Positions 2,617 through 9,822 of a DNA stretch of 9,822 bases are shown in pieces. The DNA is from a virus (Duplodnaviria > Heunggongvirae > Uroviricota > Caudoviricetes): IMG/VR virus record IMGVR_UViG_3300011952_000030; one strand, given 5' to 3'. The notes beneath the pieces were generated by a model that saw nothing but the letters and a program-made list of their open reading frames with translations, was not told where the DNA came from and did no database searches. Numbering within the stretch: position 1 is the stretch's first letter; every line of letters starts with the position of its first letter. Made by a program: the position numbers and the translations under genes.

Positions 2617-3603
2617 TTAGGCCAGCACACCAATTGCCAGCGCGCGATCGATAAATCGAAAAATCAGCTCCAGTTGGGAGCCATACTTCTCTTCAAATGC
2701 CACGGTATCCGTATGCAACTCGTCGTGATGCTTTCTGCACAAAGGCAACACAAAGAGATCATGTGCTTTGGTTCCCATTCCGCCCTGCCCGTGACCAATC
2801 AGATGATGCGGATCGTCGGCTGGCATCCCGCAGCAAGCACACGGCTGTGTCTTAACCCAGCGTGTGTATTTCTCCTTAACCCAACGGTGACGTTTAGGCA
2901 GCTTCATGAAAGATTCCGGAGACTCTGGATCAACGGTGATGCTTACCACCGTCTTTTCCTGTGATGGGTTTTGTTGCTGGTGGGCGTGAGGCAACGGTGC
3001 AAGATTTTTTGTGCGCTGTTTCAATATGCTGGTGGCGGTCTGCTCTCCCGGTACGATGTCGCTTTCGCGGTACACCGAGCAGATTTTTTCCGCTGGTAAT
3101 CCCAGCGAGCGACGTAATACCGCTTCCGGTAGCGCGTCCGCCAGCTGATTGCGGACCGCCCACCAGGATAATTCAGCCAGAGATAATTCACGCTCCTTCG
3201 TACCGCTTATTGCGTGACCGATGACGTCAATCATCCATGCTGCCAGGTTTTGATGAGCAAGTTGCTCGAGTGATTCGGATGTCTGGTCACGCAGTTGGTT
3301 GTCGCAGTGCCAGCACAACACCATTGCGCCGGTACCATATCGGTGAATAACGGTTTCNNNNNNNNNNNNNNNNNNNNNNNNNNNNNNNNNNNNNNNNNNN
3401 NNNNNNNNNNNNNNNNNNNNNNNNNNNNNNNNNNNNNNNNNNNNNNNNNNNNNNNNNNNNNNNNNNNGCAGATTACGCATGCTTTTCGGTTCCGGCTCCA
3501 CCAGTACCCGGGTATTGTGGAATACCGGCATGGATTCACGGCCCGGCTTAACGACCACCAGCCCGAGTTCCGGTACCAGAACAGGTCGAAGTAATACCCG
3601 CAC
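2617..3603 (-). CDS. Nin-region protein with C-terminal HNH-like zinc-finger motif (DUF968 / YdfU-like); reading frame passes through a 110-nt N-run so the product is incomplete
   Basis: C-terminus [18 protein letters not shown]...[10 protein letters not shown] has the CxxC...HH...CxxHH spacing typical of HNH/DUF968 proteins found just upstream of Q in Qin-type prophages. ATG 3603 sits 1 nt after the upstream gene stop. Residues within 3358-3467 are unknown. Confidence 0.55.
3358..3467. other. Run of 110 N (masked or unresolved sequence) inside the DUF968-like gene
   Basis: Directly visible. The flanking reading frame is conserved across it. Confidence 0.95.
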
Positions 3604-4417: not shown

Positions 4418-4573
4418 TTACTCCTCAGGTTCGTAAGCTGTGAAGACAGCGACCTCCGTCTGGCCGGTTCGGATTCGTACCTCGCAGAGGTCTTTCCTCG
4501 TTACCAGTGCCGTCACTATGACGGTTAAACAGATGACGATCAGGGCGATTAACATCGCCTTTTGCTGCTTCAT
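4418..4573 (-). CDS. hokD: Hok/Gef-family type I toxin (HokD/RelF-like), 51 aa from ATG 4573; the ORF track's longer 70-aa form is an in-frame upstream extension
   Basis: MKQQKAMLIALIVICLTVIVTALVTRKDLCEVRIRTGQTEVAVFTAYEPEE matches E. coli K-12 HokD as I recall it: single TM helix plus conserved Cys and C-terminal periplasmic tail. A perfect 9-bp stem-loop (4389-4410) lies just 3' of the stop. Confidence 0.85.
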   Translation of the reverse strand: MKQQKAMLIALIVICLTVIVTALVTRKDLCEVRIRTGQTEVAVFTAYEPEE

Positions 4574-4951
4574 AGCCTGCTTCTCCTTGCCTTTCGGCAC
4601 GTAAGAGGCTAACCTACATGTGTCTAGCATGAAATTGGCCTCAGATTAATGTTAAGCGTCTTGCAGGACGCGTAATGTTAACTGGGGCTTTTCTCTATCT
4701 GCCGTTGGTGTTCATGCCCGAGGCAGATAGCCTCAAGCACCCGCAGGCATTCTACTTAACTCCCGTTATCTCGCCAATATGAAATCAGTCAGAAAGGCGA
4801 TCCATAAGAATAACAGAACAATAAATTACCCGCACCACCGCAATAGTCAGCGAACATTTAAGAACCAACATGACAGCCTCCCACATTTAAAGTACGTATG
4901 TTCTAATAAATATAAATGGCATGATTCTGCGAAATACTTACATAAGCAATT

Positions 4952-5018: not shown

Positions 5019-6743
5019 TTAAAGCCTAAAAAACTTATCGTCCTCCCCAAGCTCAAGCACAACACTATTATTGATGAAGTCTTGATCAATATTCTCCAAC
5101 TTGTCTTTAAGAATAGCCAATATATATTGACCATTAATCCCCGAAGCTATCTCGAATAACTTATTTATTTGATTTACATGAATTGCCTCAATTCCATCAT
5201 GAGCTATAAAACGTGGTGTTCTGGCTTCTAAAGACTCCTGGACAGATAAATAGGCAAAATCTAAAGAGGCAACCTGGGCTTTCTTTTTTCCTTCTCCCTG
5301 ATTACCTGATGTGAGCAAAGTTCCTAAAGGTTCAATGGTAAAAACGAAAGAACCGGAGGAATCTTTATAGGAAAGAATATATTCATCCTGATATAATTTT
5401 TTAGTATATAAAGAAAAATAGGAATTGAATAGCGCAAGACGTTTGTTAAAATCGTCAAGTTTAGATTTTAATCTATCTGACACATCATTAAACTTTGCTT
5501 TCAGTATATTAAAGTTGTTCTCCATCTCTTGGATTTGAAGTAGTCCAGCTTCAAGCCCACCTTTTTCTTCAAATAATGAATTTAATTTTTTTTGCATTAT
5601 TTGCAGGTCTGCCAATGTCCCATGCGAAGACAAACTCTTTAAAAGCTCTGATTCTTGAGTCAATAAGTTATTTAGTTCATCTTTATATTTGGAAATTTCT
5701 TGCAGCACTGGCTGCATTTGTTTTCTAATAAACTCAGCTTTTTTTACAAGCATTTTATTATGAAACGAAAGTAGCTCAGTAAACTCTTTGTTTAAGTTAC
5801 CTAACCGATCAGTTGCTTCTAAGTACAACTTCTGTAGATCTAGTGTATTTATATTTTCATGACTTTTTTCCAGATCTAGTATAGCCTTATCGTTTAATTT
5901 TTGCTTAAACTCCAAAGATGATAGTGTGATAGAAACTTCACTAATTTTAATTTTTAACTCATTTAACTCAGCAAGCATATCATTATAAGAGTCTGCCACT
6001 TGAAAATTAGAAATTAACTCTTCTTGTGCTATAATATCTCTATTTATAATTGCAATAGCTTGTTCCAAAGCATTCTTTGAGCGATGGCGAGTAATTACTT
6101 CATAATCGGATTTCGCCAGTTTATAGGCTTTAGTCACTGACTGTTTTTCATCCAGAATCTGTGAGTTACCGAACCCAAACATAAACAGATTTAACGTTTC
6201 ATATTGTGTATTAGAACCCATTTTTATCGTTTTTAATGCGTTCGACATCTTGTCATGCGTATTTCGAATAACACGTCCCATAATCTCTCGTATGGTCGGT
6301 TTTATCGCGGAATCAAGATATAATGTTCTTTTTAAAGCCTCGTTGAAATCTTTAGCCTTCGTATAGGACTCTTCATTTATTGAGGCTATAACCTTCGTTT
6401 TATTAGTCTCAGATGTAATTTTACGCTTAATTTTTATTACTGGTGCAGTTTTATTATTCAAATCTTTTGTGAGAATTAAACAAAACTCAATCTCGTTCTC
6501 TATCAAATAATTTTTTATAACCGAATTTTCTTTCTTGAATTCAGGATCGGTATAAAAATTCAGTTGTTCTGCTCCAAAACAAAAATCTAAAGCTCTTAAT
6601 ACAGTAGTTTTTCCCACACCATTTCCAGTTTGCTCTTTGCTGGAGGTGTTTCGGTCAATAATCAAATTAACGCCAATGTGAAATTCGATATCACGAATCA
6701 CTCCAAGCCTGAAAGAACTGACTATTAGCCGTTTCAAAAACAT
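5019..6743 (-). CDS. P-loop ABC/SMC-like ATPase with long central coiled coil, 574 aa; last gene of the AT-rich operon
   Basis: N-terminal head typical of SMC/RecF/OLD-type ABC ATPases, with Walker A GNGVGKTT (aa 40-47, nt 6603-6626). Lys/Glu/Leu-rich heptad region at about aa 230-470. Degenerate signature-like TSGNQGEG (aa 479-485) and Walker-B-like FIAHD (aa 512-516, nt 5196-5210). ATG 6743 overlaps the upstream gene by 10 nt. Confidence 0.8.
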   Translation of the reverse strand: MFLKRLIVSSFRLGVIRDIEFHIGVNLIIDRNTSSKEQTGNGVGKTTVLRALDFCFGAEQLNFYTDPEFKKENSVIKNYLIENEIEFCLILTKDLNNKTAPVIKIKRKITSETNKTKVIASINEESYTKAKDFNEALKRTLYLDSAIKPTIREIMGRVIRNTHDKMSNALKTIKMGSNTQYETLNLFMFGFGNSQILDEKQSVTKAYKLAKSDYEVITRHRSKNALEQAIAIINRDIIAQEELISNFQVADSYNDMLAELNELKIKISEVSITLSSLEFKQKLNDKAILDLEKSHENINTLDLQKLYLEATDRLGNLNKEFTELLSFHNKMLVKKAEFIRKQMQPVLQEISKYKDELNNLLTQESELLKSLSSHGTLADLQIMQKKLNSLFEEKGGLEAGLLQIQEMENNFNILKAKFNDVSDRLKSKLDDFNKRLALFNSYFSLYTKKLYQDEYILSYKDSSGSFVFTIEPLGTLLTSGNQGEGKKKAQVASLDFAYLSVQESLEARTPRFIAHDGIEAIHVNQINKLFEIASGINGQYILAILKDKLENIDQDFINNSVVLELGEDDKFFRL

Positions 6744-6970
6744 AATATCAAATCTCCATTTTCGTTAGCATCAACCAGGCCTAATAAATATAGCCAATTT
6801 AAAGTGTAAATATATTGCGTGAATGAAGAGTTGTTATTTTTAGATTTGAATTCATTATACAAGTCTATAATATCAACATACGAATAAGCATTTGAACTCA
6901 TGCATTCTAATAACCGAGCTCCCAGGTAATACAAGGTTTGGCTTGGTTTTGTTACATCAGAGATAATCAT
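6734..6970 (-). CDS. Small 78-aa protein, third gene of the AT-rich operon; possible adaptor or winged-helix-like component
   Basis: ATG 6970 overlaps the upstream stop in an ATGA arrangement; its own stop overlaps the ATPase start. Codon usage matches the neighbours. No motif recognised. Confidence 0.6.
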   Translation of the reverse strand: MIISDVTKPSQTLYYLGARLLECMSSNAYSYVDIIDLYNEFKSKNNNSSFTQYIYTLNWLYLLGLVDANENGDLILCF

Positions 6971-7563
6971 ATTGGTTTTTCCAGAATCTTACACTCTACG
7001 AATGCATGATAAACGATAAAAGAAGCATGGCATTCGATTTCTTCGCTTGTGTAATTCATTGCCATAAGAGAATTTAAGCATTTCTTAATGATGTGCTCTA
7101 TTACACTGTCTATTATCCAATCTGCAAACTCTCTTACCAATTGAATCTTTAAATTATTCCGTTCCTGAGCATCCTTGCAGCTCTTATACGCTTCTCTATG
7201 TTTAAGCAATAAATCTCCTTGACAATCAAGATATCGTGAATTGATGCTTTTCAGTGCCGTTTCCTTAGCAGTAGGCATACTTTCATTTAATGTTTCATAC
7301 GCTTTATCTATCATCGAAGAATATAGATAGAACCCTTCAATACGTTCTCTATGTTTTATAACATCATTGAAGTCTATTTTATTCTCAATATCATATGGCT
7401 CGTAGTCATTGTTTGTACGAGGATCAATAACATTCGAATCAACTAAAATACCAACAAGATCCATAAAAATCGATGGAGACTTTATAATATCAACAGAGTT
7501 AGAATCGACAACCACCTGCACATTACGTGAGTAATTCCCTGACCTTTGAGTAACACCAACCAT
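6967..7563 (-). CDS. 198-aa soluble protein of unknown function, second gene of the AT-rich operon
   Basis: ATG 7563 lies 2 nt after the upstream TGA; its stop overlaps the next ATG. Acidic, with five Cys but no recognisable nuclease or protease motif. Confidence 0.65.
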   Translation of the reverse strand: MVGVTQRSGNYSRNVQVVVDSNSVDIIKSPSIFMDLVGILVDSNVIDPRTNNDYEPYDIENKIDFNDVIKHRERIEGFYLYSSMIDKAYETLNESMPTAKETALKSINSRYLDCQGDLLLKHREAYKSCKDAQERNNLKIQLVREFADWIIDSVIEHIIKKCLNSLMAMNYTSEEIECHASFIVYHAFVECKILEKPI

Positions 7564-7565
7564 GA

Positions 7566-7811
7566 TCAGCCTCGCTTGTTTTCATTATTTCCAAAAACGA
7601 CCGTCTGATTATTTTTTGAATGGCTACCGCTTTTTTGAATTATTGTATGCCCTGAACTTTTTTTATTAACAATAAATGTACCTAAAAATGTTACAAGAAA
7701 GCTACCAGAAGTGAACATCAATGGCACACTATTGAAGTGATATGCAGCAAAGCCAGCGCAAGCAACGAATGTCAAAGAAAATATTCTAATCATAATTCGG
7801 ATCATAGCCAC
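7566..7811 (-). CDS. Small two-TM membrane protein (81 aa from GTG 7811, or 79 aa from ATG 7805), first gene of the AT-rich operon
   Basis: Two hydrophobic helices (about aa 8-27 and 30-48) followed by a polar Lys/Ser/Asn-rich tail. AGGA lies 8 nt upstream of ATG 7805. Confidence 0.55.
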   Translation of the reverse strand: MAMIRIMIRIFSLTFVACAGFAAYHFNSVPLMFTSGSFLVTFLGTFIVNKKSSGHTIIQKSGSHSKNNQTVVFGNNENKRG

Positions 7812-7990: not shown

Positions 7991-8028
7991 AACCAACTAA
8001 CTGGCTTGCTCTGCGTTAATTAGTGCAT

Positions 8029-8085
8029 NNNNNNNNNNNNNNNNNNNNNNNNNNNNNNNNNNNNNNNNNNNNNNNNNNNNNNNNN
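8029..8085. other. Run of 57 N (masked or unresolved sequence) upstream of the AT-rich operon
   Basis: Directly visible. Flanked by ...TAGTGCAT and TGCATAGG... Confidence 0.95.
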
Positions 8086-8190: not shown

Positions 8191-8622
8191 TTAATCTCGT
8201 CGCTTCAATAGATATCGAACATTTCCCTGATAGAATGCGAGTATACGCTGCATAACTTCAGTCTTCCGGCACTCGCGACAGATTATGTTTAGGCGACTGT
8301 CGTAGCGGCGTATTTCTCCGTCAGGTAATGACCAGATAAGGTCCGGATCAACCACAGCAGGTTTCTTCACCTTTGCCCTCGAGAGTTTTTTGCGGGCGTG
8401 TTGCCAGTCCTTACGCGCCTGTTCAGACGGGAATAACCCGTAGCCGGAGTTGTATACATCGCCACTGGCTACCAGCTCTCTGGCAAGAACGCTCATCAGA
8501 TATCTAGTCGCACCTGTTTTAGCTTCCAGTTGCCGTAACGTCTCACGACCGCTCTGGCGCACGAGTTCCACCACCTGCCCTTTAATTTTTTCCCGCTCTT
8601 CTTGTGTAAAAACTTTTGCCAC
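8191..8622 (-). CDS. Hypothetical phage protein, 143 aa, immediately downstream of the replication initiator; possible helix-turn-helix
   Basis: GTG start at 8622 with a strong AAGGGGGA Shine-Dalgarno 5 nt upstream. Basic protein; a possible HTH (TLRQLEAKTGATRYLMSVLAREL). Family not recognised. Confidence 0.55.
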   Translation of the reverse strand: MAKVFTQEEREKIKGQVVELVRQSGRETLRQLEAKTGATRYLMSVLARELVASGDVYNSGYGLFPSEQARKDWQHARKKLSRAKVKKPAVVDPDLIWSLPDGEIRRYDSRLNIICRECRKTEVMQRILAFYQGNVRYLLKRRD

Positions 8623-8662
8623 AAGTCCCCCTTAAAATTACCTCATGACCTGAAATCAACAC

Positions 8663-9606
8663 TTATCCTCTGAAACCAGGCGGAATTTCTGTATCCGGTT
8701 CAGAAATATGATTAACACAACGCTGTACAGGTGAACGTCCCAGGCGGATGACCAGTTCGTCCCATTTTTCGCGGAGCTTTGACGGGCTCATGATGTTTTT
8801 TACCCAGAATGGATCTCGCTGAACCCGACCAAACATTTCGCAAATTTGTCTGTGGCTTCTGCCATCCAGCATCCGCATTGTGCGCACGTCATTGGCCCAG
8901 GCAGTCCAGTTAGGCTCTTTTGGTCGCATGATCTCGCCATCATCACTGGCTGCCTGTTCGTAGAGACCCACGATCCGCCCCCAGATCCACTGCGCACACG
9001 CCAAATCCTCCCTGCTACCCCACTGGCGTTTTTTCGCACTAAACACAACCGCGTCGGAGTTCCGGGTTAAAAAATCCTGTTCAGTCGTCTGCGGGTCCGG
9101 TTGCGAAGCTTCCGGACGAAAAGTGTTTTTATTCTCTGTAGTAATCTCTGTTGTATTCTCTGTAAGATCATCAGGCCATTTTGACCCGATGACATTGGAT
9201 CGTTTTGAACCAATGGAGCGTTTCATTTTGACCTCTTCCATCGTGTCATTTTGACCTGATGGAGCGGCGCATTTTGAACCGATGGATTCGTTCAATTTGC
9301 CACCATCTAAAAGCTCGCTCCCATAGTTGATCGTGTAGAAATTGGTCATATCGCGCTTTGATTTATTGAGCTTTTCACAACGCAAAAGCCCCAGCGTTTT
9401 CAGACTTGCAAACGCGCGCTTTAACGTTGACTCTGACCAGAATGGGAACTGTTCCAGCCATTGTTCCGTTGTGTTATAAATCCAGCGGAGTTGGTATCTC
9501 TCAACCAGTAGTGCAGTTGTTGCAAAACAATGGCTTCGTTTAAGCCGATTTTCATTGCCAGCTGCGTGTTTATAACCAGTGGGCGTTCAGCAAAAAGAAG
9601 ACTCAT
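8663..9606 (-). pseudogene. Lambda-O-like replication initiator (replisome organiser) disrupted by an apparent single-base frameshift near 9489-9503; contains the iteron origin
   Basis: N-terminal domain (MSLLFAERPLVINTQLAMKIGLNEAIVLQQLHYWL) is in one frame and its continuation (RWIYNTTEQWLEQFPFWSESTLKRAFASLKTLGLL...) in another. Both read as one winged-helix domain if a 1-nt indel is assumed. Could be a sequencing error rather than a true pseudogene. Confidence 0.6.
9177..9295. repeat. Replication-origin iterons: five copies of CATTTTGA(A/C)C(C/T)GATGG at 23-24 bp spacing, plus a degenerate sixth, flanked by an AT-rich repeat-containing stretch (9121-9176)
   Basis: TTTTGA cores start at 9179, 9203, 9226, 9249 and 9272. 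The adjacent AT-rich segment carries ATTCTCTGTA twice. Origin inside the initiator gene is the lambda arrangement. Confidence 0.7.
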
Positions 9607-9808
9607 AATTCCATCCAGCTTTTTGTTGGTATTGCTGTCGATACGCAAGCTTGAAAGCAATTGCTTTTTCTATAAGTTCGTCAGTTTCACGATCTACAAC
9701 GGCAGGATCTGCAAAAAGCAGTCCGGATTCCACCACATCGCCATATTCTTTATTTAACCCGGCGATCATGTACGTAATACTTTTTCCATCACTGGTCTCA
9801 CGATCCAA
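9587..9808 (-). CDS. Hypothetical 73-aa ORF upstream of the replication initiator; start may lie at or beyond the window edge
   Basis: Open frame ending about 20 nt inside the initiator start. No family recognised. Confidence 0.35.
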   Translation of the reverse strand: MDRETSDGKSITYMIAGLNKEYGDVVESGLLFADPAVVDRETDELIEKAIAFKLAYRQQYQQKAGWNYESSFC

Positions 9809-9822
9809 CCTGAAATCACTAA

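Follow-up and report, generated by a model that had tools for sequence, protein, structure and literature searches.

A 22-bp deletion probably disables the O-like replication initiator gene of a lambdoid prophage and leaves its internal origin unchanged

Introduction

In bacteriophage lambda the replication origin (ori-lambda) lies inside the initiator gene O, in the part encoding the inter-domain linker, and its iterons are followed downstream by an AT-rich segment. The same layout is found in the O-like replication initiator gene examined here. It lies on the minus strand of a 9,822-nucleotide viral sequence (Caudoviricetes; IMG/VR record IMGVR_UViG_3300011952_000030), the whole of which we call the window, and it is interrupted by the loss of 22 bp. 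As in lambda, the gene occupies the initiator position of the early-right operon, after cro and the genes at the cII position, and the C-terminal domains of its product and of lambda O are homologous (34% identity). Unlike lambda O, the protein has an N-terminal domain that is not of the Phage_rep_O type, and it ends in a DnaT-like tail. The origin also differs in having five or six iterons of another sequence. Directly downstream stands a gene for a DUF977 (Ren-like) protein and not one for a P helicase loader.

A second group for comparison is formed by the RepA_N initiators of plasmids and satellites (RepA of pSK41 and pTZ2162, RepA of the Vibrio cholerae PLE) together with the N-terminal domain of DnaD. 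The window protein shares with them a modular, swappable C-terminal domain. It differs from RepA_N proteins in showing no PF06970 sequence match, in having a C-terminal domain of the lambda O type and in belonging to a lambdoid prophage rather than to a plasmid.

Finally, the cryptic lambdoid prophages of Escherichia coli K-12 and B strains (Qin, Rac) share the chromosomal locus by rspB/ynfA. Deletions, insertion sequence (IS) insertions and frameshifts are routine in such elements: in BL21 the integrase gene is frameshifted and tail genes are truncated, and in other strains an independent 281-bp deletion hits the same part of the initiator gene. In contrast to these prophages, the 22-bp deletion is the only lesion of the window.

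Results and discussion

The initiator gene lacks 22 bp

Translation of the minus strand from the ATG at 9606 gave a frame of only 61 aa (MSLLFAERPL...YWLRDTNS) that stops at 9421–9423: it consists of MSLLFAERPLVINTQLAMKIGLNEAIVLQQLHYWLRDTNS, then 21 unrelated residues and the stop codon. The remainder of the initiator, RWIYNTTEQWLEQFPFWSESTLKR... (RWIYNTTEQW...PPGFRG*), is encoded in a different frame down to a stop at 8663–8665, and the two frames overlap by 64 nt (9423–9486). An earlier model-made annotation without database searches, hereafter the sequence-only reading, had likewise placed the N-terminal domain and its continuation in different frames of a single broken initiator gene.

We searched 5,426 complete E. 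coli genomes by megablast with positions 8600–9822 (1,223 bp) and observed that the best matches spanned 1,245 bp. Alignment of window positions 8640–9640 with the Qin-locus prophage of BL21(DE3) (NC_012971.2) showed that every base is identical save for one 22-bp gap: CGGTATGGAATGTGATGGTGTT (gene sense) is gone from the window between 9488 and 9487. CG is present at both edges of the gap (2-bp microhomology), leaving the breakpoint ambiguous within 9485–9488. The deletion takes out codons 41–47 (GMECDGV, G41–V47) and one further nucleotide, a net −1 change of frame. The BL21(DE3) allele is a single 321-aa open reading frame (ORF), WP_000054497.1, listed in RefSeq as 'hypothetical protein', and 281 of its 321 residues are lost from the ATG-started product. 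The deleted residues belong to a conserved block in which G41 and E43 are invariant among 18 homologues (70–99% identity).

These alignments to intact homologues, which the sequence-only reading had proposed, revised its view of the lesion itself. The suspected 1-nt indel proved to be a 22-nt deletion, and the junction fell just outside the 9489–9503 interval where the switch of frame had been expected. Also, the deletion is not in a homopolymer, so that checking for a homopolymer sequencing error would be the wrong test. As in a pseudogene, orthologues form one intact ORF and the lesion introduces a premature stop. We consider it likely from these comparisons that the window copy represents a recent, private pseudogenisation of an O-like initiator beside an unchanged origin, and we infer that initiator function is lost in this copy.

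We then considered whether the two segments could instead be two genuine genes, one for a small N-terminal and one for a separate C-terminal protein. A 228-aa C-terminal ORF is indeed called as a gene in other assemblies, but these carry the different, 281-bp deletion. Intact relatives from Escherichia to Citrobacter and Salmonella have one ORF of 321–330 aa that is continuous across the site, the N-terminal 61-aa and 79-aa ORFs are on record nowhere, and the split falls within one folded domain of the AlphaFold2 model described below. We give this explanation next to no credence and retain a single disrupted gene, as the sequence-only reading had it.

It could also be supposed that programmed −1 ribosomal frameshifting still yields a full-length product, or that a C-terminal fragment restarted at M94 is functional, for example by titrating host helicase factors. 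The 64-nt overlap of the frames would suit the former. For the latter, the C-terminal domain and the DnaT-like tail are still encoded in an open frame, in which an ATG is available at 9349. The earliest possible restart codons of the 3′ portion, TTG 9385 and ATG 9349 (M94), are however both past the helix-turn-helix, so that an M94-started fragment would be devoid of it. Reading of the overlap revealed no slippery heptamer of the X XXY YYZ type, which makes recoding unlikely, and residues 41–47 would still be missing after any shift of frame. We therefore rejected programmed frameshifting, and the two proposals taken together appear very improbable. Pseudogenisation remains our preferred reading of the two frames.

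Recent deletion or artefact

The closest genome, E. coli WP2-W18-ESBL-08 (NZ_AP021933.1), has an intact copy of the gene and shares 99.7% identity with the 9.8-kb window as a whole, the only differences being the 22-bp deletion, five single-nucleotide polymorphisms (SNPs) and two runs of N. Since the prophage of this closest genome is apparently complete, the lesion of the window looks recent and private. The main competing explanation is that the 22-bp gap arose by assembly, sequencing or editing and that the true genome carries the intact 321-aa gene.

Several observations weigh against a genuine deletion or limit what can be built on it. The junction was found in none of the 5,426 complete E. 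coli genomes with a 120-nt query, all listed matches to which span 141–142 bp and hence contain the 22 bp. It was also missing from GTDB representative genomes, IMG/VR and JGI metagenomes, searched with a 42-nt exact pattern, and is thus unique to the window across all collections searched. None of the fragment ORFs of 61, 79 and 240 aa was on record when looked up as an exact product. Both N-runs have the wrong length: that at 3358–3467, inside ydfU (DUF968), holds 110 N in place of 173 bp in NZ_AP021933.1, and that at 8024–8085 consists of 57 N and a duplicated TGCAT where NZ_AP021933.1 has no extra sequence at all. The five SNPs relative to NZ_AP021933.1 are private and fall into two tight clusters (2465/2474/2481 and 9795/9805), in a window whose remainder is identical to known genomes. 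In addition, the window covers only part of the prophage, the rest of which lies outside, and the AlphaFold2 model used to place the lesion within a domain is of moderate confidence, with a mean predicted local distance difference test score (pLDDT) of 56.7 (64–77 for the N-terminal and 68–84 for the C-terminal domain).

We examined the N-runs and SNPs more closely. Either N-run may represent a scaffold gap or mask a real indel; behind the second there could be a small insertion that duplicated 5 bp of its target. In the first SNP cluster, located in Q, only R40K is non-synonymous, while both changes of the second, in ydaT, are non-synonymous (Y to D and I to T). Neither cluster was found whole in any of the 5,426 complete E. 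coli genomes. Together, N-runs and SNP clusters are compatible with a source of draft or masked sequence and also with a small number of recent changes private to it.

The form of the lesion argues in the other direction. A clean loss of 22 bp with only 2-bp microhomology and no homopolymer or repeat is atypical of short-read as well as long-read error, and the nearest N-run is about 1.4 kb away. What platform error can look like is illustrated by a Shigella flexneri copy of the gene (L023; CP182557.1, 2960–3960), whose single-base indels number more than 10 and in several cases fall in homopolymer runs. On balance an artefact is the less probable explanation, one that nevertheless keeps appreciable weight, and the deletion is likely to be real.

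The same S. flexneri copy had been a candidate for an independent pseudogene. It was rejected because of its many single-base indels, which look like long-read sequencing error or heavy decay.

Decay of the initiator gene recurs elsewhere. An independent 281-bp deletion in other E. coli assemblies (L005, 9700–10060; L008, 1060–1420) has removed the 3′ end of ydaT together with some 52 codons at the start of the initiator. What is left is the 228-aa ORF that starts at M94, and 30 blocks of our collection have it annotated as a gene. Truncated or fused products are common among the database relatives of the initiator.

The lesion reveals no new biological system: it is either ordinary decay of a known and widespread O-like initiator of a Qin-locus prophage, or an artefact. 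That a single prophage gene should suffer a private frameshifting deletion is routine and matters little by itself, and the intact allele is already known from RefSeq and from an isolated phage (see below).

The intact initiator and its domains

The intact protein gave no Pfam match at E ≤ 0.1 and belongs to no NCBIfam family. It matched PHROG 391 ('replication initiation O-like') over its full length, residues 17–321 aligning with positions 11–298 of the 298-position profile (E 1.4e-91), and residues 2–168 also matched a 'DnaD-like helicase loader' family of PHROGs. By BLASTP, residues 142–294 aligned with residues 130–270 of lambda O, its C-terminal domain (34% identity over 153 residues, E 1e-26); in a tblastn search of lambda-like phages the identity was 36% (E 2e-16). 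The N-terminal domain showed no match to Phage_rep_O (PF04492) at E ≤ 0.1, while lambda O, used as a control, was recognized over residues 22–115 with an E-value of 5.8e-36. RepA_N (PF06970) was not among the Pfam matches at the same threshold. A sequence search of the PDB returned only the DnaT tail and a spurious match to YteR.

We built an AlphaFold2 model from a shallow alignment. Its N-terminal part comprises helices 14–20 and 22–38, a strand at 47–51, helices 54–60 and 66–78 and a wing extending to residue 101. Residues 109–174 are disordered and coincide with the iterons and the AT-rich 12-mers described below, and a helical C-terminal domain follows at 183–295. In this model the deletion removes a loop and the start of the strand (41–47), ahead of helices 54–60 and 66–78 and the wing. 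Together with the RepA_N-like iterons, the model reasonably supports a winged helix, putatively of the RepA_N/DnaD type, for the N-terminal domain, in line with the winged-helix assignment of the sequence-only reading. Many relatives match only residues 1 to ~154, the C-terminal domain being modular and swappable. These assignments allow WP_000054497.1 to be annotated as an O-like initiator whose N-terminal domain is RepA_N-like and whose gene contains the origin.

Database relatives also include 448-aa YdaT::initiator fusion proteins (P0001, P0002 and P0004), of which P0001 occurs on 56 contigs.

The internal origin

A core CRTTTTGAMC occurs five times without mismatch, on one strand, at 9177, 9201, 9224, 9247 and 9270 (spacing 24/23/23/23 bp). 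By chance 0.13 copies would be expected, and none of 200 shuffled sequences reached five. A sixth, degenerate core is located at ~9293–9302. The iteron unit is semi-palindromic, CATCRGG-TCAAAATG-CCYGATG, around an A/T tract. Iterons of RepA_N initiators have been described as semi-palindromic direct repeats converging on an A-tract (PMC7145576), and those of the initiator studied here answer to this description.

The adjoining AT-rich segment (9121–9168) contains the local GC minimum of 27.5% and three tandem 12-mers at 9130–9165; copies of their pattern ACAGAGAWTA extend over 9130–9163, with 0.05 expected. In gene sense the 12-mers read ACAGAGAATACA / ACAGAGATTACT / ACAGAGAATAAA and encode the peptide TENTTEITTENK, so that both DNA and protein constraint may possibly act on them. 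Similarly, the peptides SIGSK, PSGQN and VIGSK are the iterons translated in frame.

The origin of the window is base-identical to that of BL21 and shows two spacer differences (9199 and 9291) from that of phage PhiR42_1, which supports an intact origin at the sequence level. Thus the description of this region given by the sequence-only reading holds: five iterons at 23–24 bp spacing within an intact internal origin, an adjacent segment of unwinding type (as a sequence feature) and SIGSK repeats that are nothing but translated iterons.

We extended the analysis to 32 relatives taken from genome contigs, using TRF (Tandem Repeats Finder). Most have 3–5.6 units with a 22–24-bp period at gene nt ~320–460, and the array is directly followed by 3–5 copies of the 12-mer ACAGAGAATACA at gene nt ~440–510. 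Iteron sequence differs by lineage (GGTCAAAATGA, GGACAATCTGTCC, GGGCAAATTGCAC, GATCAATCTGCGCAC, GATCCAACGAGCGGATCAAAA) and the 12-mer changes little. The peptide TE[IS]TTENK, the translation of the 12-mers, was one of the two patterns by which loci had been fetched, which biased our first count of 12-mer conservation. The count was repeated on 71 loci lacking this peptide pattern and fetched through the N-terminal motif: 31 of them carried at least three CAGAGA at 11–13-nt spacing in the expected place, among them loci of Staphylococcus, Limosilactobacillus, Cellulosilyticum and Tissierellia. On this recount, a CAGAGA 12-mer element is conserved across phyla beside variable iterons.

The taxa in which the 12-mer stands next to iterons, themselves different, are Enterobacterales, Photobacterium, Staphylococcus, Limosilactobacillus, Cellulosilyticum and Tissierellia. 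A 290-aa allele (P0016–P0021) lacks 31 residues, equivalent to 93 bp of the iteron array, indicating that iteron number varies in frame.

A DnaT-like tail and a model of initiation

The last 17–21 residues of the protein, VNHISEPDTEIPPGFRG (intact residues 301–321), nearly match the C-terminal tail of E. coli DnaT, VNTVSEPDSQIPPGFRG (PDB 2ru8, 6aep, 9zbt). The motif [IV]PxGF[RK]G was present at or near the C-terminus in about 20 of 78 related initiators whose C-terminal regions are otherwise different. The tail may act as a transferable peptide for recruiting a factor of the host primosome. The literature consulted assigns no role to the DnaT C-terminal tail. The module has no P- or DnaC-like gene of its own: in the window, BL21, WP2-W18-ESBL-08 and PhiR42_1 alike, the initiator is followed by the DUF977 gene and not by a helicase loader.

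If the protein works like lambda O and RepA_N initiators, its N-terminal domain would bind, in the form of dimers, the 23-bp semi-palindromic iterons in the middle of the gene, and the resulting nucleoprotein complex would open the adjoining AT-rich 12-mers. The iterons and the 12-mer triplet, the likely unwinding element, would at the same time encode a disordered linker. The C-terminal domain with its DnaT-like end would bring in the host helicase machinery, a step presumed here because the module has no loader gene of its own. Both the DnaT-like peptide and the CAGAGA 12-mer could be clues to how the host helicase is recruited by initiators that lack a P protein. In the window copy, only 40 native residues would be translated, followed by 21 foreign ones, and the product would end ahead of the recognition helix and the wing.

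Prophage context and consequences

The prophage of WP2-W18-ESBL-08 is lambdoid and complete-looking, adjoins rspB/ynfA (Qin locus) and extends from int to tail genes. Its genes are those for integrase, excisionase, exonuclease, dicB, repressor, cro, ydaT, the initiator and DUF977, along with ABC-3C genes, hokD, rem, DUF968, Q and genes for lysis, terminase, portal, capsid and tail. In the window we observed, in this order along the minus strand, the 3′ end of YdaT, the initiator, DUF977, a small membrane protein with ABC-3C, hok/sok, rem, DUF968, Q, a lipocalin and YbgA. Coordinates of the features are collected in Table 1.

Table 1. Coordinates of the initiator gene, its internal origin and neighbouring features in the 9,822-nt window
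Feature	Position	Strand	Details
5′ fragment of the O-like initiator gene	9421..9606	-	40 native codons M1-S40 (9606-9487), 21 out-of-frame codons, TAA 9421-9423; from translation and alignment to the intact BL21 allele
3′ portion of the same gene	8663..9487	-	codons R48-G321 and stop, -1 frame relative to the ATG
N-terminal winged-helix DNA-binding domain (predicted)	9326..9606	-	intact residues ~1-101
Deletion junction	9485..9488	.	22 bp CGGTATGGAATGTGATGGTGTT (gene sense) missing; present in all compared alleles
Iteron array	9169..9307	.	five 23-bp units with exact core and a sixth, degenerate unit
AT-rich segment, presumed DNA-unwinding element	9121..9168	.	three tandem 12-mers; downstream of the iterons in gene direction
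C-terminal helical domain	8744..9082	-	homologous to the lambda O C-terminal domain; 34% identity, E 1e-26
Last 21 codons	8666..8728	-	VQRCVNHISEPDTEIPPGFRG; matches the E. coli DnaT C-terminal tail; motif kept in the family
YdaT-family gene, 3′ end, upstream of the initiator	9587..9822	-	20-nt overlap with the initiator start
DUF977 gene, downstream of the initiator	8191..8622	-	PHROG 'Ren-like exclusion protein'
Cargo: ABC-3C system (DUF2326 ATPase, MC6, CTD10 protein) and small membrane protein	5019..7811	-	inserted between DUF977 and hokD; absent from BL21
hokD toxin ORF	4418-4630	-	intact type I toxin-antitoxin module with sok
sok antitoxin RNA	4568-4742	-	Rfam RF01794, 115 bits

An intact, 99.4% identical protein is encoded in the same module by the plaque-forming phage PhiR42_1, a complete genome of 48.7 kb with ECOR13 as recorded host. 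The PhiR panel of temperate phages, to which PhiR42_1 belongs, has been used in plaque assays (PMC13190303). The presence of the intact allele in such a phage argues that it belongs to a working replication module.

From the loss of 281 of the 321 residues we reasonably infer that the prophage of the window is unable to replicate autonomously. The copy would be an initiator pseudogene beside a cis-competent origin. Its origin should be silent with no functional initiator made in cis, and the prophage copy would fail to amplify after induction if no matching initiator came in trans. Such a supply is possible in principle, since a single genome can have up to four related modules. One could therefore imagine an origin-only prophage with a real deletion, replicated in trans by co-resident or superinfecting lambdoid phages of the same initiator specificity, that is, a nascent satellite spreading the ABC-3C system and hok/sok at its helper's expense. 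We regard this as a long shot. For a study of this strain's prophage or of its ABC-3C defence cargo, the lesion is relevant in marking a prophage copy that is probably unable to replicate on induction.

The cargo itself is still carried, as the sequence-only reading had noted: it includes the ABC-3C system, hok/sok, the lipocalin and YbgA. The ABC-3C part is low in GC and its membrane protein is 81 aa long. It occurs in a handful of E. coli genomes, and seven genomes cover at least 80% of the window.
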